Both the position numbers and the translations under genes were made by a program. DNA of 15,247 nt from a virus: the UHGV virus genome UHGV-0194282; one strand, 5' to 3'. How positions within the stretch are numbered: the first letter of the stretch is position 1; each line of letters opens with the position of its first letter. Positions 8,892 to 15,247 of this stretch are shown here, one piece after another. The notes under the pieces were generated by a model. It was not told the origin of the DNA, did no database searches, and was given only the letters and a program-made list of their open reading frames with translations.

Positions 8892-9057
8892 TTTTCGGAA
8901 TACCTCTCCCGTTTACTCAGTTGTTCAGGCAGATGGTGAAGCAGCTCACCGTTGCCGCAGTAAATGGCGGCATGGTTCGGTACCGAAGCACCAAAGCAGC
9001 ACAGCAGAATATCGCCCGCCTGTGCAGAGGACAGGGGCACCCGGTAAAAGCCGGTGC
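8789..9057 (-). pseudogene. K: Tail protein K, C-terminal ~88-codon fragment (5' part deleted)
   Basis: ...TGFYRVPLSSAQAGDILLCCFGASVPNHAAIYCGNGELLHHLPEQLSKRERYSEKWQRRTHSVWRHRHWHASAFTGIYNDLAAASACM matches only the C-terminal part of lambda gpK (~246 aa); the N-terminal part with the metalloprotease motif is absent. Confidence 0.85.
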
Positions 9058-9815: not shown

Positions 9816-11411
9816 TTATCGTCGCCGGTTAACAGCGGGTGGTTGCCCACGGTTGTCCGTCCCCACTTCACACAGATAAACGCCCCGCTGATTGCGGGTT
9901 TTCGGCATGGTGATCACCGGCTTGCCATAGACAGACGCGCCTTTTACCGGCAGCACACGGAAAACACCGTGTTTTTTTGACCTCTGGTAGACGATTTCAC
10001 CATCGATCCCCCCGGTGTCCCAGCAGACACGGGAAATGGTCATTTCGGTGCCATCCGCATGGCGGTATTTTTTGTTGATCGCCGCATCCACACGTAACAG
10101 CGTCTCTTCCTCATCAGGACGCCCCATAATGATGATTTTATCCACCAGAAAAGCTTCCTCTCCCGGTGCCCATCCCCAGACATACATCTCAAAACGGTTT
10201 CGCTGCGAGTCAATGCCCGCCGTCAGATAAACCACCCGGGCAGGCACCGCCGCCGTGTAACGCACAACCTTATCCATCAGCACCTGGTGATCGAGTTTTT
10301 CGCCCACGGCCTCTTCCCAGGTCTCGCCCAGCGTGGTGTTCACAAAGGTTTTCAGGCCGTTGGGATCTTTCAGTGCATCCAGCCAGTCATAGACTATCTG
10401 TACCCAGGTGGTGAACGGACTGTACGCTGTCCAGATATGGAACGTGATGGAGCGCGGCGGCGGAATTTCATTATCCGCGGCGCTGAAAAACGTCAGACCG
10501 TCACGGGTCCACATCCCCGTGTTTTCACAGATCCACCGCCCGTTGCTCTGGTCAAGCTCAGACTGATGGATCACGCAGCCATGATGTTCACAGAGGTAGA
10601 AAACGCTTTCGGGGCTGTCCTTCTCCCATTTAAGGCCAAAAGGCGTGGATTCATCGCCAAATTTCAGATACTGCTCCTCCCCACAGTGTGGGCAGGGCAC
10701 ATAAAAACGCATGAAATGCGCCGACTCGTTGGCCGCTTTTTCGATCTGGCAGGTGCCTTTGATTTTAGGCGTCGAGCCGCGAATGGATTTGGGCCATACA
10801 GAGCCCTCAATACGTTTATCCCCAAGCAGGGTTGGCGAACCCTCTTTTTCGACATCCGGTTCGAACGAGGAAAGTTCGTCATAGCAGACCACGTCCACGG
10901 ATTTTTCACGGTAGTTTTTGGCGGCAGCGCCGCCCAGGCACCAGAAACCCACACCCGATGAAAAGCGTTTCAGCGTGAGGGTATTGTCACGATGTTTACG
11001 CCCCAGCCATGGAAAAAGGTCTTTCAGACATGGCACATCCCGAATCGTCGCCTCCACGTGAGACTTCATAAAATCTTCAGCGGCAGAATCCGTGGGCTGA
11101 AAAAGCAGACTGTTTCGGGATTTATGCTCAATAAAATACCCGACCACCCCCAGCAACATCTTTGTATAGCCAACACGGGCAGATTTAATCAGATTAACAG
11201 TCCGGATCTGATCATTCCCCATGCTGTTCATGATGGCGATCTGGAACGGCAGCGTTTTCCATTCTCCCTCACCATATGAAGATTCTTTAGGCAGATAATA
11301 ATTTTGATCAGCCCATTCAACTGGCGTCACCGGCAATGCCCTTATCAGGGGCTGTAATGCTGTTGTGACAGCACTCATCATATTATTCAGTTGTTGCTCT
11401 GATATATTCAT
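9816..11411 (-). CDS. A: Terminase large subunit gpA, C-terminally truncated (531 aa; roughly 120 C-terminal residues replaced by 12 unrelated codons)
   Basis: From the internal ATG at 11411 (MNISEQQLNN...VEWADQNYYLPKES...) colinear with lambda gpA up to ...GVYLCEVGTD, then NRGQPPAVNRRR and stop, 15 bp before Z. The ORF-track start at 11468 is an upstream extension. Overlaps the Nu1-like gene by 29 nt, as in lambda. Confidence 0.85.
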   Translation of the reverse strand: MNISEQQLNNMMSAVTTALQPLIRALPVTPVEWADQNYYLPKESSYGEGEWKTLPFQIAIMNSMGNDQIRTVNLIKSARVGYTKMLLGVVGYFIEHKSRNSLLFQPTDSAAEDFMKSHVEATIRDVPCLKDLFPWLGRKHRDNTLTLKRFSSGVGFWCLGGAAAKNYREKSVDVVCYDELSSFEPDVEKEGSPTLLGDKRIEGSVWPKSIRGSTPKIKGTCQIEKAANESAHFMRFYVPCPHCGEEQYLKFGDESTPFGLKWEKDSPESVFYLCEHHGCVIHQSELDQSNGRWICENTGMWTRDGLTFFSAADNEIPPPRSITFHIWTAYSPFTTWVQIVYDWLDALKDPNGLKTFVNTTLGETWEEAVGEKLDHQVLMDKVVRYTAAVPARVVYLTAGIDSQRNRFEMYVWGWAPGEEAFLVDKIIIMGRPDEEETLLRVDAAINKKYRHADGTEMTISRVCWDTGGIDGEIVYQRSKKHGVFRVLPVKGASVYGKPVITMPKTRNQRGVYLCEVGTDNRGQPPAVNRRR

Positions 11412-11892
11412 CGAGTAAATCCGGTAATTTATCCCCCGCCCGCGCACACTGATTTGCCCCCTTCGCAATAAGGGTTTTCAGATGGTCAAGATGGCGCGGT
11501 GTTAAATCAGGAAACTGTCGCTGCATGGATAAAGGGATGGAATCAAGCGTACTGGATAACGCCATTGCCAGCTTGCTGAGGGCAAAAATACAGAACCCGG
11601 TATCAATAAGTTTTCCTTTTGACACCTCATTTTTTAACTGCTGTGTAACAGCCTGTTCTGCTGTCAGTTCCCATCTGGCAATAAGCAATTTCTCCTCATA
11701 GTCGTCTTCGCTATCGCCATCAGGCACATCGTTTTTACTTCTTCTCAGATACGATATGTAAAAATCGCGCCAGGCATCCAGATCCAGTTGCCCTCGCTTA
11801 TTCGATATCGGGGCACCCGGCAATTTCTGCAATCTGCGAAGCTGGCGATCGGTCAGACTTAAATGCCTGGCAACTTCAGTCTGCGTAGCCAC
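11383..11892 (-). CDS. nu1: Terminase small subunit (Nu1-like; non-lambda N-terminal DNA-binding domain), GTG start
   Basis: C-terminal half (...TGFCIFALSKLAMALSSTLDSIPLSMQRQFPDLTPRHLDHLK...LLDEYI) matches lambda Nu1; the N-terminal ~60 aa differ from lambda. GTG at 11892 preceded by GAGGTGAGGA. Sits next to cos. Confidence 0.85.
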   Translation of the reverse strand: MATQTEVARHLSLTDRQLRRLQKLPGAPISNKRGQLDLDAWRDFYISYLRRSKNDVPDGDSEDDYEEKLLIARWELTAEQAVTQQLKNEVSKGKLIDTGFCIFALSKLAMALSSTLDSIPLSMQRQFPDLTPRHLDHLKTLIAKGANQCARAGDKLPDLLDEYIRATTE

Positions 11893-11939
11893 TCCTCACC
11901 TCGCAAAAACTCTCACTTCACAATCACAACAAAACCGGT

Positions 11940-12038
11940 CATGTCCGGCTTACATGTCTATTTTTTGTGCATGTCCGGTTCACAGAAGACCTCTTTTTTT
12001 ATTTTTCATATAGTTAACTTGAAGAGAAACCGGACATG
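11940..12038. repeat. cosB-like array: three copies of CATGTCCGGyTy (two direct, one inverted) around an AT-rich spacer
   Basis: catgtccgg at 11940-11948 and 11970-11978, inverted ccggacatg at 12030-12038; AT-rich 11990-12029 between the second and third copies (IHF-site-like position). The layout cosN-R3-I1-R2-R1-Nu1 mirrors lambda cosB but the repeat sequence is not lambda's. Confidence 0.6.
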
Positions 12039-12075
12039 GTTCCCGGAAAATTTTCATAAATAGCGAAAACCCGCG

Positions 12076-12087
12076 AGGTCGCCGCCC
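12076..12087 (-). other. cosN cohesive-end site (lambda-type 12-nt GGGCGGCGACCT on the minus strand)
   Basis: Window 12054-12120 is the reverse complement of the lambda cos junction as I recall it (ggaaaattttcataaatagcgaaaacccgcgaggtcgccgccccgtaac...gatcaccggaaaggacccg). Confidence 0.85.
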
Positions 12088-12310
12088 CGTAACGGTCTGG
12101 ATCACCGGAAAGGACCCGCCAACGACTTTCGCGTGCAGGCATTAAAAATTTTGCAGTTCCATGCCTAGTTGAAACCTCGATTTCTATAACATCCAATTTT
12201 GTAAATTTAGATATAGCTCAACTTTTCCCAATGTTTTCAAGTGTATAAAAACAATTGGCGTTACGCCATAACACTATACTTAGGATAAGTAAAGATTTTA
12301 AGGAGTTTTA

Positions 12311-13378
12311 ATGAGTCAACATCAATATTATCCACAGCTGAAATGGAAGCCTGCTGAATATGAATCTCTGATGCTTTTAGATCAAACTACGCTCTCTGGT
12401 TTTACTCCGATCATTACCATTCCAGACATAGACTGGGATTATGAAAACGAATGCTACAAGAAGAGTTTGAGTTCTTACTTATCTGACTTCGGTATTAACC
12501 TTGCGGCATCCTGGAAAGCCAATCGTCCTGTTTTGCTGGATGTTAAATATTTAGATAAACATGGTTCGAGCCGCCATCATCCTCTAGATATGTGTATCCA
12601 AGATGCTAGAGTAAATGGTAAGGAAATTATCCCTGTTGTTTCTCCCGCATATTCAACAAACTATATACATGCTGTTCAACGCAACTTAATCAATGGGCTC
12701 GCTATATCTATCACCCCCCAGACATGGCACCAATTCACAAGTCTGGTTAACCACTTAAATATTCATCCTAGTTTAATTGATGTAATCATTGATTTTGGAG
12801 ATATTCAAAACGCAACTGATAGTTTAAAACAACAAGCATTAAGCATGGTCAACACATTATCAGGCCAAGCTCCGTGGAGAAACTTGATTTTATCTTCAAC
12901 CGCATACCCAGCATCACAGGCAGGGATACCGCAACATCAAGTTCATCATATTCCGCGCCATGAATACGATCTTTGGATGTACGTAGTACAGAATTTTAGC
13001 AATGGAAGAACGCCAAGTTTTAGTGATTATCCCACCGCTAGCTCTACCATTACGAGCGTAGACCCACGCTTCATGTCTCAGTATGTCTCAGTGAGATATT
13101 CGAACGATACCTCATGGATCTTTGTAAAAGGTACCGCAGTTAAAGGAAATGGATGGGGCCAAACTAAAAACTTATGTACTACCCTTGTTAGTTCGCCAGA
13201 GTATCAAGTCTTTGGTTCCAAATTTAGTTGGGGGGATGATTACATTTACCAAAGATCATTAGGCGCTAACAAATCTGGCGGCTCTAAAGAATGGCGTAAA
13301 GTTGCACATACGCACCATATTACGTTAGTCGTGAGACAGCTTTATTGGTTGGCGCAGACTCAGCCTGCCAAGCCTTAA
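12311..13378 (+). CDS. Hypothetical protein, 355 aa, low-GC cargo gene; function unknown
   Basis: Long + strand ORF with a strong Shine-Dalgarno (AAGGAG, 6 nt before the ATG) and AT-rich upstream region with -10-like hexamers. GC content clearly below the flanking phage genes. No catalytic motif I can name. Confidence 0.8.
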   Translation: MSQHQYYPQLKWKPAEYESLMLLDQTTLSGFTPIITIPDIDWDYENECYKKSLSSYLSDFGINLAASWKANRPVLLDVKYLDKHGSSRHHPLDMCIQDARVNGKEIIPVVSPAYSTNYIHAVQRNLINGLAISITPQTWHQFTSLVNHLNIHPSLIDVIIDFGDIQNATDSLKQQALSMVNTLSGQAPWRNLILSSTAYPASQAGIPQHQVHHIPRHEYDLWMYVVQNFSNGRTPSFSDYPTASSTITSVDPRFMSQYVSVRYSNDTSWIFVKGTAVKGNGWGQTKNLCTTLVSSPEYQVFGSKFSWGDDYIYQRSLGANKSGGSKEWRKVAHTHHITLVVRQLYWLAQTQPAKP

Positions 13379-13940
13379 CTTTCCAGCCTACGCGTTTCTT
13401 TAAGGCTGTTCTGACTTCAAGCCTGAGATTCGCTATTGGAATATTTTCCGCAATAATATTCCATAACTCAAATCGGGGCTTGCTTTTGATTCCTTTGGAA
13501 TAGCCCCATCGTTCAAGTACGTCGATACATTCATCTTTCCAAAGCAATTGAGCGAGCATCAATGTGTCATGGTTTCGATTAAGCTTTTCTCCACGCATGT
13601 GCTTTATAAGAATGGCGCCTTTTGGCCCAACAGAAACCGTTTTAACGCCCCACCAACCTGGGATTAACTTTAATGCTCCCTCAAGATGTTTCTCAGCTAC
13701 GACAAGAGTAACCTTGTCCATTACAGAAGAATAATGCTTGATTTGAAGAGGCAAACGCTCCAAAGAGTCATATTCACTTTTGAGCTCGTACCCGTGTATA
13801 ACACCATTTATTACAGCAATGTCTGCTCTACTGGCGCCAAGGGATATGGAAAATTCATCGACCACAAGGCAGTCTGGATCTAAATGCGATTCTTTCAAAA
13901 GCTTATGATGCACCGCGAACCTAACATCTTGATCTTTCAT
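13320..13940 (-). CDS. Hypothetical protein, 206 aa, with a PD-(D/E)xK nuclease-like motif
   Basis: Minus-strand ORF with AAGGAG 5 nt before the ATG. The N-terminal region has acidic residue E29 (VVDEF), D40 (RADIAV) and E52-x-K54 (GYELK), the spacing typical of PD-(D/E)xK nucleases. Convergent with the 355-aa gene; 3' ends overlap by 59 bp. Low GC. Confidence 0.8.
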   Translation of the reverse strand: MKDQDVRFAVHHKLLKESHLDPDCLVVDEFSISLGASRADIAVINGVIHGYELKSEYDSLERLPLQIKHYSSVMDKVTLVVAEKHLEGALKLIPGWWGVKTVSVGPKGAILIKHMRGEKLNRNHDTLMLAQLLWKDECIDVLERWGYSKGIKSKPRFELWNIIAENIPIANLRLEVRTALKKRVGWKVKAWQAESAPTNKAVSRLT

Positions 13941-14290
13941 GACTTCTCCTTACTCCCTCCGTTATTGAATTATAGCGCACTGCATTTTACTGCATTTGAG
14001 AGATTTGACCACTTCAATCACAAAATGCTTATCTGCAGCAACAAGATTCATAGCCATACGACTATGGTGATTACCTTTTGTCTGGAAAACTGACCATTCC
14101 ACGAAGATCAGATAGGTCTATAGAATCTTGGTTTGTCATAGCGTTCGCCTTACTTTGAGATGAACCTTTGCTGCATAGGAGATCAGCCCGTCAAGGCTCA
14201 CCAGCACTAACTGACTACTCAAAGGCTCATTCCAAAGGGTTTGGTTCGACGTGGTTGAGTGCACTGCGGTGCGCGGTGAAATACCTGTAC

Positions 14291-14317
14291 AAAAATGCCC
14301 CGCATCTGCGAGGCATT
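14291..14317 (-). terminator. Intrinsic terminator ~40 bp downstream of Rz/Rz1
   Basis: Stem aatgcc (14294-14299) / ggcatt (14312-14317) with a further internal cgca/tgcg pairing; on the minus strand it is followed by U5 (A5 at 14291-14295 on +). Confidence 0.55.
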
Positions 14318-14356
14318 TTCCTGAAAGTCACGTATTAAATTTCAGTGAAATTAAAA

Positions 14357-14794
14357 TTATTTTAAGCACTGCGTCCTGATGTACTCCTGCAGGTAGTTGA
14401 CCTGCGCGGTTATCTTGTCGATTCCACTTCGGAGACGGTAATAATTGAGTTCAGCATCTGCTGTAAGTCTTGGGCTTTCTCCATTGCCCATGCCGCTGGC
14501 TCCGGTCGTTGACTTTGCACAGGTAGCGGCGACTTGCAGGCGCTTACGCCCAGCAGAAACATCAGCACGGAGGCTTTCGATAGTCGCGTTAGCATCAGCA
14601 AGCTCCTTTGTATATCTGGCATCGAGTTCTGCTACGTCACGTTGACGCTTCTGCATATCAGCGATTGTGGATGTGGCTTTATCGCGCTGCTCTTTGTAGG
14701 TTATGGCGTTATCACGGTAATGATTCAGCCCCAGACTAAGCGCACCACAGGCCACCAGCAGGGCAATGATGACCACGCACAGTACGCGGTTCAT
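14357..14794 (-). CDS. Rz: Spanin inner-membrane subunit Rz (145 aa)
   Basis: MNRVLCVVIIALLVACGALSLGLNHYRDNAITYKEQRDK...DVAELDARYTKELADA...GRKRL matches lambda Rz; N-terminal transmembrane segment then coiled coil. Confidence 0.93.
   Translation of the reverse strand: MNRVLCVVIIALLVACGALSLGLNHYRDNAITYKEQRDKATSTIADMQKRQRDVAELDARYTKELADANATIESLRADVSAGRKRLQVAATCAKSTTGASGMGNGESPRLTADAELNYYRLRSGIDKITAQVNYLQEYIRTQCLK
14410..14595 (-). CDS. Rz1: Spanin outer-membrane lipoprotein Rz1 (~61 aa), embedded in the +1 frame of Rz
   Basis: From the internal ATG at 14595 (AAGGAG 8 nt upstream): MLTRLSKASVLMFLLGVSAC, a signal peptide with a lipobox, then a proline-rich mature region KSPLPVQSQRPEPAAW. The ORF track shows the longer 14410-14622 frame. 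Confidence 0.8.
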   Translation of the reverse strand: MLTRLSKASVLMFLLGVSACKSPLPVQSQRPEPAAWAMEKAQDLQQMLNSIITVSEVESTR

Positions 14795-14795
14795 T

Positions 14796-14894
14796 TCACC
14801 ACCAGCGTATCTGACCGATGAAATAACCGGAGGCCATAATCACAAACACCAGCCAGATAAGAATGAACTTCCAGGTGGATAATTTTTCAGCCAT
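14796..14894 (-). CDS. Possible small membrane protein (32 aa) translationally coupled to Rz
   Basis: ATG at 14894 preceded by GGGAGA about 8 nt upstream; product MAEKLSTWKFILIWLVFVIMASGYFIGQIRWW has one hydrophobic helix; its TGA stop lies 1 nt before the Rz ATG. The upstream part of the 89-aa track ORF spans a terminator hairpin and is not credited. Confidence 0.3.
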   Translation of the reverse strand: MAEKLSTWKFILIWLVFVIMASGYFIGQIRWW

Positions 14895-14969
14895 CACTCG
14901 AATCTCCCGAATCAGTTTGCTAAAATCAAACACACTTTCTCCTTTGACTTTTCCGGAGTCAGGAAACAC

Positions 14970-15003
14970 AAAACCCCGCTTGCAGCCAACAAACGGGGTT
15001 TTT
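14970..15003. terminator. Bidirectional terminator-like hairpin between the endolysin gene and the small ORF/Rz
   Basis: aaaaccccg (14970-14978) / cggggtttt (14994-15002) with a partly paired loop; T-tracts on both flanks. Confidence 0.4.
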
Positions 15004-15092
15004 ACTTTTATTCTCTTAGTTTTTGTCAGTTCGCAGGATTTCGTGTTATCCGTCCGTGTGAGCAAACCGCATTTTTCAGCAAAATATTCTGC

Positions 15093-15247
15093 TTATCTGT
15101 CAATTCCCCAGCACGCCAGCGCACTCTCCTGGTCGCGACGGGATACCTGACCGTAACAGTTGTTTGAGCGAATACGGCAGTCTCTGCCACCGTCCTTAAT
15201 CCACCAGCGAATCGCCTCACACGCTCCCCTGCGATCACCTGCATTAA
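15093..15247 (-). CDS. R: Endolysin (phage lysozyme R), C-terminal 50 codons; 5' part lies beyond the window
   Basis: Minus-strand frame reads ...NAGDRRGACEAIRWWIKDGGRDCRIRSNNCYGQVSRRDQESALACWGIDR then stop at 15093-15095, matching the C-terminus of lambdoid-prophage lysozymes as I recall them. Not in the ORF track because it is window-truncated and out of frame with the listed 72-aa ORF. Confidence 0.85.
   Translation of the reverse strand, partial: NAGDRRGACEAIRWWIKDGGRDCRIRSNNCYGQVSRRDQESALACWGIDR

Follow-up and report, generated by a model that had tools for sequence, protein, structure and literature searches.

A candidate lambda-type cos site of Gifsy-like specificity and its matched small terminase subunit in a recently gutted prophage

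Introduction

The closest described counterparts of the locus analyzed here are the cos sites of the lambda-like phages. Across these phages the 7-bp cosQ is highly conserved (PMC4669245), and the I2 segment spans bp 18-50, of which bp 30-35 are critical (PMC4856287). Gifsy-1 is counted by Feiss and co-workers among the lambda-like cos phages with a complex cosB; its cos has the order R3-I1-R2-R1 (PMC9026076), with R1 in the R3 orientation in the published layout. The cos sites of PICIs, on the other hand, contain no repeated R sequences and lie next to rpp, not next to a gene for the small terminase subunit (TerS) (PMC9026076).

The window, which is the whole stretch of DNA that was analyzed, comprises 15,247 nucleotides of the UHGV virus genome UHGV-0194282, and all positions given below refer to it. 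Judged from its sequence, the minus strand of 11935-12117 appears to be a complete lambda-type cos, with Gifsy-like specificity, of a lambda-like phage packaging module. Read along the minus strand, the order of elements is cosQ, cosN, I2, cosB (R3, an IHF-like site, R2, and R1), and then the TerS gene. We consider it probable that the locus as a whole represents a lambda-like cos with its own matched box/TerS pair, carried as a passenger in a recently gutted prophage.

cosQ, cosN, and I2

The heptamer GGGTCCT, which can be read directly in the sequence at 12111-12117 (minus strand), is what we take to be cosQ, the packaging-termination subsite (lambda coordinates 48473-48479). As in lambda, it is located 30-24 bp ahead of the first base of the cohesive end, the 30 bp in question being 12088-12117. 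The sequence GGGTCCTTTC is invariant in 40 unique variants of the site, and divergence is complete upstream of it. The cohesive-end segment of cosN, GGGCGGCGACCT, occupies 12087-12076 on the minus strand (base 1 is 12087) and is identical to the ends of lambda and phage 21. Since it is identical to lambda, cleavage would be expected in cosN at 12076-12087. Both cosN and its right flank had been described as lambda-like. Positions 12043-12087 are 100% identical to lambda bp 1-45. This stretch includes an I2-type A+T-rich segment between cosN and cosB (12043-12075, minus strand), which equals lambda bp 13-45.

The cosB boxes and the IHF-like site

The initial annotation of the region noted three copies of CATGTCCGGyTy, two direct and one inverted, around an A+T-rich spacer; exact copies were found, and their flanks match this description. 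The core, CATGTCCGG, has three exact copies in the whole 15.2-kb window, all of them within the site, at 11940-11948 and 11970-11978 on the plus strand and at 12030-12038 on the minus strand. With their flanks, the copies read CATGTCCGG-CTT, CATGTCCGG-TTC, and CATGTCCGG-TTT. The 51-nt stretch from the inverted copy to the nearer direct copy is 75% A+T. A fourth CATGTCCGG-like copy with one mismatch, CATGACCGG (11935-11943, minus strand), overlaps the outer box, and the overlap gives the near-palindrome CCGGACATGACCGG. In first-order Markov simulations in which non-overlapping copies were counted, the chance of at least three copies of any 9-mer in 183 nt was 1/40,000 with the composition of the window, and 44/40,000 with the region's own composition.

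The inverted copy at 12030-12038 (minus strand) corresponds to R3, at bp 50-58 from the cohesive end, and is the proposed primary TerS-binding site. This box is invariant across the 40 variants, and its position (13-mer start at bp 49 +/- 1) is the same in seven relatives from other genera; R3 is found at bp 53-64 in lambda and at bp 53-60 in phage 21. Beyond R3 lies a putative IHF site of the I1 type, TAACTATATGAAA (12004-12016, minus strand; bp 72-84), which agrees with YAANNNNTTGATW at 7 of 9 specified positions. The best match to the IHF consensus occurs 13 nt after R3 in 11 of 12 family loci (taken from Escherichia, Salmonella, Klebsiella, Citrobacter, and Enterobacter), where it scores 7-9 of 9. 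In phage 21, bp 74-86 read TAACTTTTTG and are annotated as I1; the corresponding lambda sequence is TAACTTAATG. The R2 box (11970-11978, plus strand; bp 109-117) is inverted relative to R3 and shows rare point variants (CCGGGCATG in L033, L038, and L070). The distance from R3 to R2 is identical in 12 of 12 family loci despite differing spacer sequences. Likewise, a comparison of the 40 unique variants (78 loci) shows little or no change in the boxes and the IHF-like site, and it is the spacers that vary.

The outermost box, R1, is less regular. It covers 11935-11948 (plus strand), where the exact copy (11940-11948) has the R2 orientation and overlaps CATGACCGG in the R3 orientation. Its conserved half is the R2-oriented copy, the other half being lost in L020 and L024, and in L085 a deletion fuses R2 with R1. 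In relatives, R1 is absent or stands at another spacing, and it is often missing altogether. R1 is probably an accessory site. The repeats had been compared initially to the layout of lambda cosB with different boxes. Both the layout and the difference in boxes hold, with an amendment for the exact copy of R1: in lambda and phage 21, R2 is the only inverted box, whereas in the window the exact copies of R2 and of R1 both run opposite to R3.

Repeats of this kind might instead be unrelated to packaging, as hairpins or terminators, or as operators for the late operon or the adjacent cargo gene. A terminator-like scan does detect hairpins with T-rich tails at R1 and R3 (3 found vs 0.8 +/- 0.8 expected). 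However, it is the CCGG palindrome within the boxes that gives rise to these hairpins, R2 is left without a partner, and R1 is missing in many relatives. A terminator was rejected as the main explanation on account of this origin and because relatives do not preserve the hairpin structures. Folded as RNA, the cosB strand of the region does no better than shuffled sequences (z = -0.86), and Rfam has no family in 11700-12400 at E <= 1; readings as an RNA element were dropped on these two results. In addition, the spacing of the boxes, both to cosN and among themselves, is constant, and their sequence changes together with the TerS helix described below. We regard a role outside packaging as extremely unlikely.

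The small terminase subunit and its pairing with the boxes

The TerS gene (11383-11892, minus strand) is intact and encodes a protein of 169 aa from a GTG start (WP_000235436.1). By BLASTP, only residues 73-164 align with lambda Nu1 (46% identity), and only residues 64-166 align with gp1 of phage 21 (40% identity). The Pfam family Phage_Nu1 (PF07471) scores 67.9 bits against a cut-off of 30, in a match limited to residues 49-150 (profile positions 62-163). The alignments to Nu1 are thus confined to the part of TerS beyond the N-terminus, which agrees with the original description of a lambda-like C-terminal half joined to a different N-terminus. The N-terminal 64 residues, when searched alone, gave no match to a Nu1 or HTH profile, and NCBIfam contained no model matching TerS.

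The N-terminal ~55 aa are predicted to form a helix-turn-helix-wing-helix domain, which is unlike those of lambda, phage 21, and N15; the C-terminal ~100 aa are Nu1-like. The AlphaFold model of TerS has a pLDDT of 81-84 in the N-terminal part, with helices at residues 4-10, 15-22, and 38-55. A phmmer search of the PDB with TerS returned no meaningful match, and the nearest folds found by Foldseek for the model are of the MerR-type winged-HTH class at non-significant E values (0.3-3); for both reasons the winged-HTH domain is a predicted one. Neither in sequence nor in fold did the N-terminal domain significantly match the DNA-binding domain of lambda Nu1.

Across the compared loci, residue 20 of TerS tracks base 4 of the box. 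The helix ..RQLRRLQK.. (R20) is paired with [C/G]ATGTCCGG in 5 of 5 loci, and the helix ..R[R/W/Q][L/V/F]R[D/N]LQK.. (D/N20) is paired with CA[T/C]TTCCGG in 6 of 6. In L007 and L008, cosB and the N-terminal domain have been swapped as a cassette, with cosQ/cosN and the C-terminal half of TerS unchanged. These two loci carry an N15-like N-terminus together with GGTTGTTGTT repeats, and GGTTGTTGTT is the published R3 motif of N15 (PMC4669245).

A co-adapted pair of box and TerS had been suggested from the window alone, and the idea gains from several sides: the boxes are constrained, the geometry of R3, R2, and the IHF-like site is fixed, helix and box co-vary, and the cassette swap in L007 and L008 moves the two together. 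It is well supported by these comparisons that the box sequence and the putative recognition helix of TerS would form a matched pair. The two helix/box classes may each be one clade, in which case the co-variation itself could stem from a single evolutionary event. Because it differs from the pairs of lambda, phage 21, and N15/Monarch, the pair in the window most likely constitutes a separate packaging specificity. A bolder proposal, for which we see the arguments as evenly balanced, is that CATGTCCGG/R20 and its sister CATTTCCGG/(D/N)20 are one or two further specificities beyond the three documented experimentally (lambda, phage 21, and N15), present in roughly a fifth of complete E. coli genomes, and that residue 20 reads base 4 of the box. 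If true, residue 20 and base 4 would make up a simple, switchable recognition code. A defective prophage with cos and TerS still in place, such as the one in the window, would then serve as a packaging sink, or as a launch site for recombination, that acts specifically on incoming phages of its own class.

Proposed packaging mechanism

By analogy with lambda and phage 21, a series of steps can be proposed. A TerS dimer would bind the inverted R3 and R2 boxes (CATGTCCGG) via its N-terminal winged helix-turn-helix domain, and a bend induced by IHF at the A+T-rich spacer would join R3 and R2. The complex bound to R3 and R2 would then anchor the large subunit (TerL), leading to the nicking of cosN at 12076-12087. 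Packaging would subsequently proceed toward Nu1, that is, toward low window coordinates.

The invariant R3-I1-R2 geometry, taken with the residue/base pairing, offers a compact test system for how TerS reads DNA. The two features could also predict cross-packaging or interference between resident prophages and incoming lambdoid phages, including relatives of Stx phages. Together, geometry and pairing also provide a sequence rule by which cos sites and packaging classes could be annotated in prophage catalogues.

Distribution of the packaging module

The module is widespread, as it is present in 1163 of 5426 complete E. coli genomes (about 21%). By its sequence it appears to be a member of a TerS family whose Salmonella members show the cohesive-end pattern of Gifsy-1. 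The same cosB and TerS are carried, at 97% identity, by PhiR12_1 to PhiR12_5, whose deposited host is K-12 or E. coli C; a literature search found no paper describing the PhiR12 phages. Going by these deposited hosts, the module presumably works in propagating phages. What the initial annotation had taken for a possible helper-dependent packaging site is, then, the standard cos of a common prophage family. The site is ordinary biology, not a special device for the transfer of host DNA.

A scan of genome contigs yielded four loci. In two of them, L005 and L006, the TerS gene is truncated by an IS and no cos is present, so that they had nothing to tell about cosB.

Decay of the prophage

Downstream of TerS, the TerL gene is truncated (9855-11411, minus strand). 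Its 519 codons are colinear with residues 1-519 of gpA at 69% identity; the protein is cut at residue 519 of 641, so that the last ~122 residues are deleted, and the Pfam GpA_nuclease match reaches only as far as position 212 of the 294 in the profile. Strain 582 carries an intact sibling prophage at the same potB/potC locus; it is 99.8% identical over 9850-15247, a region that contains the TerL remnant, TerS, cos, and the cargo. Two deletion joints, both with short microhomology, were mapped against this sibling. At joint 2 (9850-9855), ~5.8 kb has been lost, namely the TerL C-terminus, W, B, C/Nu3, D, E, FI, and FII. At joint 1 (9048-9056), the loss of ~5.9 kb removes the 3' part of U, V, G, T, H, M, L, and the 5' part of K. 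The element is without capsid genes and a full-length TerL, as had been noted from its sequence.

Of the 5426 genomes, only 3 have both joints, at 100% identity. The element measures ~37.7 kb in all, with int and xis annotated as intact and a replication region broken by ISKpn26. The deletions are recent, and they have taken the head genes, half of the tail genes, and the C-terminus of TerL. Since the prophage is a recent double-deletion derivative in 3 genomes, no selection is needed to account for the intact cos and TerS. Both are unmutated by descent, and the intact cos by itself is no evidence of a role.

Possible mobilization of neighboring DNA

A different reading gives the intact cos a continuing function, in which the element is a helper-dependent passenger whose infectious particles move the J/stf alleles and the cargo pair. 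Several observations could be taken in its favor. Both cos and TerS are intact in sequence. With int and xis annotated as intact and a length of ~37.7 kb, which is close to the lower packaging limit of lambda, the element could in principle be packaged after excision and multimerisation. Helpers of the same class are common, given the number of genomes that carry the module. Furthermore, recombinant progeny can arise when packaging starts at a prophage cos and a crossover then occurs downstream (PMC4669245).

However, lambda-type terminases need a second cosQ-cosN to terminate, and no other cosN/cosQ was found in strain AST46 over a range of 54 kb upstream and 70 kb downstream. When packaging initiates at the cos of an unexcised prophage, the product to be expected is a stalled, tailless, non-infectious particle (PMC4669245), and this is also the product expected for the proposed helper and passenger. 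The DNA said to be moved fits in part, as J and stf do lie in the packaging path. The cargo pair (12311-13940) would not be taken, because it is upstream of cosQ, opposite to the direction of packaging. There is no sign of retention by selection: the deletions are both recent and rare, and mutations are equally absent from the flanking pseudogenes. The ISKpn26 insertion interrupts the replication region, a 1.2-kb TerL/Z/U/K probe covering the TerL/tail part was placed at a single place in AST46 by a search that reports one place per record, the one and indirect indication that this strain may have no resident helper of the same class, and the locus is without the PICI hallmarks (PMC9026076).

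We therefore judge infectious transfer through a helper to be unlikely, and the mobilization of adjacent chromosome that had been raised at first is left mostly unsupported. A co-infecting phage of the same class could start packaging here, and, as no second cos is in range, the outcome would be a stalled, non-infectious particle. Such a start would at most drain the yield of the helper or seed recombinants, with no transfer of chromosome. The preferred reading is that of a passenger cos in a gutted prophage: an intact cos is expected in such a prophage soon after deletion, and alone it is not enough for a lambda-type terminase to move host DNA.

Comparison with known cos systems

Elements that resemble the gutted prophage in outline are the cos-type PICIs of E. 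coli, which hijack the TerS of a helper by means of Rpp. They are likewise chromosomal, lack capsid genes, and have a lambda-like cosN; as neither they nor the element in the window have capsid genes, both would depend on the heads and TerL of a helper. Identity with a PICI was rejected on the three R boxes, the TerS/TerL/tail gene order, and the intact sibling in strain 582, which together make the element a decayed prophage.

N15 and Monarch share the modular design of the window, but their recognition helix and R sequence differ from it. Repeats of the N15/Monarch type accompany a different N-terminus on a window-type C-terminal half of TerS in L007 and L008, and N15 itself has a single R3, as opposed to the three boxes of the window. 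Lambda, with its gpNu1 cos (found also in phi80 and 434), agrees with the window in the cleavage region, where the cosQ heptamer is the same and bp 1-45 are wholly shared. It has the same complex type of cosB, in which R3 and R2 are inverted to each other and flank an IHF site. In contrast, its R consensus is CGTTTCC(t/g)TTCT, compared with CATGTCCGG in the window, where in addition TerL is truncated, the head genes are absent, and the N-terminal domain of TerS is unrecognized by Pfam Phage_Nu1 and BLASTP.

Phage 21 (OL657228, M81255) resembles the window in cosB, which is R3-I1-R2-R1 in that phage, and its cosQ and cosN are identical, with the same order of subsites. That R3, I1, and R2 of the window fall within 2-3 bp of the positions annotated there speaks for the identity of the site as a cos. 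The start of its TerS gene is ~190 bp from the cohesive end, as in the window. It could thus be asked whether the site simply has phage 21 specificity, with CATGTCCGG as a drifted form of the R box CATGTCGG that is used by a phage-21-type terminase, including the DLP12/Qin-type Nu1 homologues. The two boxes do resemble each other, with CATGTC..GG in common; R3 and R2 are 59 bp apart from centre to centre in both; and the I1 core TAACT...TG is shared. On the other hand, the window box has one extra C, and the whole cosB of the window is 2-3 bp nearer to cosN. The exact R1 copy of the window is inverted relative to R1 of phage 21. The C-terminal halves of the two TerS proteins are homologous (40% identity), yet the N-terminal 63-72 residues have no detectable similarity to gp1, and the helices differ (TDRQLRRLQK in the window vs DPRTIERWQS in phage 21). 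Differences smaller than these suffice for a more than 1000-fold discrimination between lambda and phage 21 (PMC4669245). A check against phage 21-type specificity had been recommended at the outset, and it turned up neither the phage 21 core C[A/G]TGTCGG, nor the phage 21 positions, nor a gp1-like N-terminus. Phage 21 specificity is accordingly held to be very unlikely, and Gifsy-like specificity is the reading that we prefer.

The Gifsy-1-type systems of Salmonella have a TerS of the same N-terminal family (MATQxEVAxHL...), and their R3 position, R3-R2 distance, and I1 offset are equal to those of the window. The link to Gifsy-1 itself rests on the published cohesive-end differences: cosN of the Salmonella locus L098 differs at positions 8, 9, and 11, in full agreement with what was published for Gifsy-1 (PMC4669245). 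Within this family, the Gifsy-like branch combines the box CATTTCCGG with N or D at residue 20 of TerS, whereas the window combines CATGTCCGG with R20 and has a cohesive end identical to that of lambda.

Organization of the cos site

Because its Nu1-like gene lies on the minus strand, the locus is read on that strand. The cosQ heptamer GGGTCCT (12117-12111) is separated by a 23-bp spacer from the cohesive-end sequence GGGCGGCGACCT (12087-12076), which is followed by an A+T-rich segment and the R3 box, CATGTCCGG (12038-12030; bp 50-58 from the first cohesive-end base). An IHF-like element, TAACTATATGAAA (12016-12004), lies in an A+T-rich spacer, and two boxes inverted relative to R3, R2 (11978-11970) and R1 (11948-11940), both CCGGACATG, complete cosB. 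A Shine-Dalgarno sequence then precedes the GTG start (11892) of the small terminase subunit, TerS (169 aa). The lambda-like cosN flank and the three repeats around an AT-rich spacer, described in the initial annotation, are real: lambda bp 1-45 is 100% identical to 12043-12087, and three exact copies of CATGTCCGG occur in the entire 15.2-kb window, every one inside the cos region. At least three non-overlapping copies of any 9-mer arose within 183 nt in 1 of 40,000 simulations using the composition of the window, and in 44 of 40,000 using that of the region. R1 is a near-palindrome, as it is overlapped by CATGACCGG (11943-11935), a one-mismatch copy in R3 orientation. Lambda and phage 21 invert R2 alone, whereas here both distal exact copies are inverted. 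Terminator or RNA readings of these repeats were unsupported. A 66-aa ORF (11863-12063, plus strand) overlaps cosB, as does an annotated "hypothetical protein" in phage PhiR12_1 (L002 4056-4178, minus strand); both are probably artifacts of gene calling across a protein-binding site.

Conservation of cosB among relatives

Close relatives were represented by 80 IMG/VR loci, fetched from 264 confirmed TerS relatives, and PhiR12_1. A usable cos in 78 loci gave 40 distinct cos sequences, that of the window included. Across these, little or nothing changes in R3, the IHF-like element, R2, and R1; substitutions are concentrated upstream of cosQ and in the cosQ-cosN, I1-R2, and R2-R1 intervals. More distant relatives were compared through the DNA upstream of TerS homologs of 60-80% identity from Klebsiella, Salmonella, Citrobacter, Enterobacter, and E. 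coli (12 loci, including the window and PhiR12_1). All 12 have an R3-like box, with an inverted copy at exactly equal distance from it; in the seven relatives whose cohesive end could be placed, the start of the 13-mer is bp 49 ± 1, matching the window. In 11 of the 12 loci, the IHF consensus is matched best at the same offset, 13 nt after R3 (score 7-9 of 9). R1 is found in only some, at varying distances, a patchiness that fits the accessory role published for lambda R1 (PMC4669245). Both levels of comparison, close and distant, show constraint on cosB.

Rearranged sites were also seen in IMG/VR loci. In L085 (around 2940), R2 and R1 are fused (GTGAACCGGACATGACCGG; compare window 11940-11978), apparently through unequal crossing-over between the 30-bp-spaced direct repeats, leaving a two-box cosB. 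This is a small-scale analog of the derivation proposed by Feiss, in which the simple N15 cosB arose from a Monarch-like one. In L020 (around 1867) and L024 (around 2914), approximately 80 bp of unrelated DNA, beginning within the R1 near-palindrome (CCGGACATATGCGTGCG...), takes the place of what normally lies distal to R1, so that the R2-oriented half of R1 alone is kept.

The TerS N-terminus and its pairing with the R box

TerS is lambda-like in its C-terminal part and different N-terminally, as had been proposed. BLASTP aligns only residues 73-164 with lambda Nu1 (46%) and only residues 64-166 with phage 21 gp1 (40%), and the Pfam Phage_Nu1 match covers residues 49-150. With the N-terminal 64 residues alone, none of the Nu1 or HTH models was matched, in contrast to the strong match given by the lambda N-terminus. 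The DNA-binding domain of lambda Nu1 is a MerR-like winged HTH. The conserved N-terminus in the family alignment reads MATQxEVAxHLxLTxRQLRxLQKxPGAP...DAWRYFY, and an AlphaFold model built on that alignment places helices at residues 4-10, 15-22, and 38-55, with a loop or wing before the last (pLDDT 81-84). Its closest solved folds are the MerR-type winged-HTH DNA binders CadR, SoxR, RdfS, RacA, and BldC, none of them significant (E 0.3-3). A winged HTH is the probable fold. With residues 1-82 as query against the phage collection, the domain family reaches beyond the Enterobacteriaceae at 45-58% identity, to Aeromonas phages including phiARM81ld, Pseudomonas phages LPPA33 and Y8, and Escherichia phage vB_EcoM-705R4. 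In Shigella flexneri and E. coli ECMA0423 (L005/L006 2977-3306), an IS element truncates the same gene at residue ~68, the end of its transposase ORF lying immediately upstream; the N-terminal domain and the whole cos are removed.

Helix and box vary together. A second helix of the form ..RQLRRLQK.. always accompanies [C/G]ATGTCCGG boxes (5/5 loci: the window, L102 from Salmonella, L099 from Citrobacter, L100 from Enterobacter, and L104), and ..R[R/W/Q][L/V/F]R[D/N]LQK.. always accompanies CA[T/C]TTCCGG boxes (6/6 loci: L095 from Klebsiella, L096 from E. coli, L097, L098, L105, and L103), although each class may be a single clade and the difference hence one evolutionary event. An independent swap that points the same way is seen in E. 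albertii (L007) and Escherichia sp. (L008), where cosQ/cosN and the C-terminal half of TerS are the same as in the window, and the N-terminus is N15-like (MAFLLNKSDMASS...), with three GGTTGTTGTT repeats in forward, inverted, and forward orientation. The published N15 R3 is GAGGTTGTTGTT, and a tripartite cosB of N15-type repeats is the published Monarch arrangement (PMC4669245). Thus, cosB is exchanged along with the TerS N-terminus as a cassette, the behavior predicted of a matched specificity pair. From these comparisons, the co-adapted pair suggested in the initial annotation appears well supported. The reusable result is the family-wide R3-I1-R2 geometry, together with the pairing of TerS residue 20 with box base 4.

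Directly against cosQ lies a pair of cargo genes (12311-13940). The first encodes a Beta_protein (PF14350; PADLOC matches PD-Lambda-2_C and "beta") and the second a sce7726-family protein (PADLOC match "cll"); as a pair they look like an anti-phage defense moron. In L007 (1253-1640), the Beta_protein 5' end abuts the same cosQ/cosN, followed by the N15/Monarch-type cosB; therefore, cargo and cosQ-cosN recombine independently of the cosB/TerS N-terminus cassette.

Prophage context and decay

E. coli AST46 carries the window in its chromosome at 100% identity, as part of a prophage of ~37.7 kb between potC and potB. This prophage contains int, xis, a lysis cassette, and two IS insertions, and TerS is followed by a truncated large subunit (TerL) and then tail genes. 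Strain 582 carries this prophage too, in the same position; its head/tail module is full, and its TerS protein and cargo pair are unchanged. Alignment of the two mapped two deletions of ~5.8 kb each: one (joint at 9850-9855) removed the TerL C-terminus through FII, and the other (joint at 9048-9056) everything from the 3' part of U to the 5' part of K. Both joints carry short microhomologies of 4-6 bp. With most head genes and half the tail genes gone in these separate events, gpZ and part of gpU are left as an island between. Lambda gpA aligns colinearly with the TerL remnant over gpA residues 1-519 of 641 (69% identity), and the Pfam nuclease-domain match of the remnant stops at profile position 212 of 294. 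Of 5426 complete E. coli genomes, only 3 contain the whole of a probe across both joints, each at 100% identity, and 9850-15247 (TerL remnant, TerS, cos, and cargo) matches the intact sibling at 99.8% identity. These figures place the gutting of the element in the recent past, and no selection need be invoked to explain an intact cos and TerS. The strains sharing both joints are AST46, TOE17, and DLI.5a only. Outside the window, the AST46 prophage shows further signs of decay: IS421 splits a DNA methyltransferase gene (L001 31538-33936), and a DUF977 gene of the early or replication region (L093 38432-39966) is truncated by ISKpn26.

Possible packaging from the cos

Lambda-type packaging starts at cosN-cosB and proceeds toward Nu1, and its termination requires a downstream cosQ-cosN. 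Packaging in the window would run toward low coordinates, through the TerL remnant, tail genes, J, lom, stf, and tfa, then potB, potA, pepT, phoQP, purB, and beyond. The tail genes, J, and stf thus lie in the path, as had been anticipated, but the cargo pair, expected to be carried along, is upstream of cosQ on the opposite side and would not be taken. Scanning 54 kb upstream and 70 kb downstream in AST46 revealed no second cos, only chance 2-mismatch 12-mers lacking cosQ context. A phage of the same specificity can initiate at a prophage cos, package adjacent bacterial DNA, and stall at a full head, which produces a particle that is tailless and non-infectious and reduces the yield of the helper; alternatively, recombinant progeny arise through a downstream crossover (PMC4669245). 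The AST46 cos presents exactly the situation described there. A closely related resident helper is unlikely, as a 1.2-kb probe covering TerL/Z/U/K maps to only one place in AST46. In principle, the 37.7-kb unit could instead be excised, multimerized, and packaged, int and xis being annotated as intact; however, ISKpn26 interrupts its replication region, and the data give no indication of this route. Mobilization of neighboring DNA, as initially envisaged, is largely contradicted by the direction of packaging, the missing second cos, the recent deletions, and the established lambda mechanism.

Comparison with known packaging systems

At 80% coverage or more, the segment spanning cosB and the TerS N-terminus was recovered from 1163 of 5426 complete E. 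coli genomes; among 50,697 phage records, the five PhiR12 phages alone carry it at 97-99% identity. The PhiR12 records give K-12 or E. coli C as host, so the packaging module probably functions in propagating phages. PICIs lack R repeats and have rpp beside cos (PMC9026076); the window locus is without any published PICI feature.

In phage 21 records, R3 occupies bp 50-65, I1 74-86, R2 107-122 (inverted), and R1 150-166, with box cores CGTGTCGG and CATGTCGG. The window boxes and a TAACT...TG element sit at the same places, 2-3 bp nearer cosN, and the R3-R2 center distance is 59 bp in both. Phage 21 specificity is nevertheless unlikely, as this comparison, proposed at the outset, found the box different and shifted and the TerS N-terminal domain unrelated to gp1 at the sequence level. 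The cohesive end of the Salmonella locus L098 differs at positions 8, 9, and 11, exactly those published for Gifsy-1 (PMC4669245), whose cosB is R3-I1-R2-R1 according to Murialdo and Feiss (PMC9026076). Only three specificities, those of lambda, phage 21, and N15, had been documented experimentally by 2015 (PMC4669245), and the literature searched nowhere described the CATGTCCGG box or linked it to TerS residue 20. Systems of this kind are nevertheless thoroughly known.
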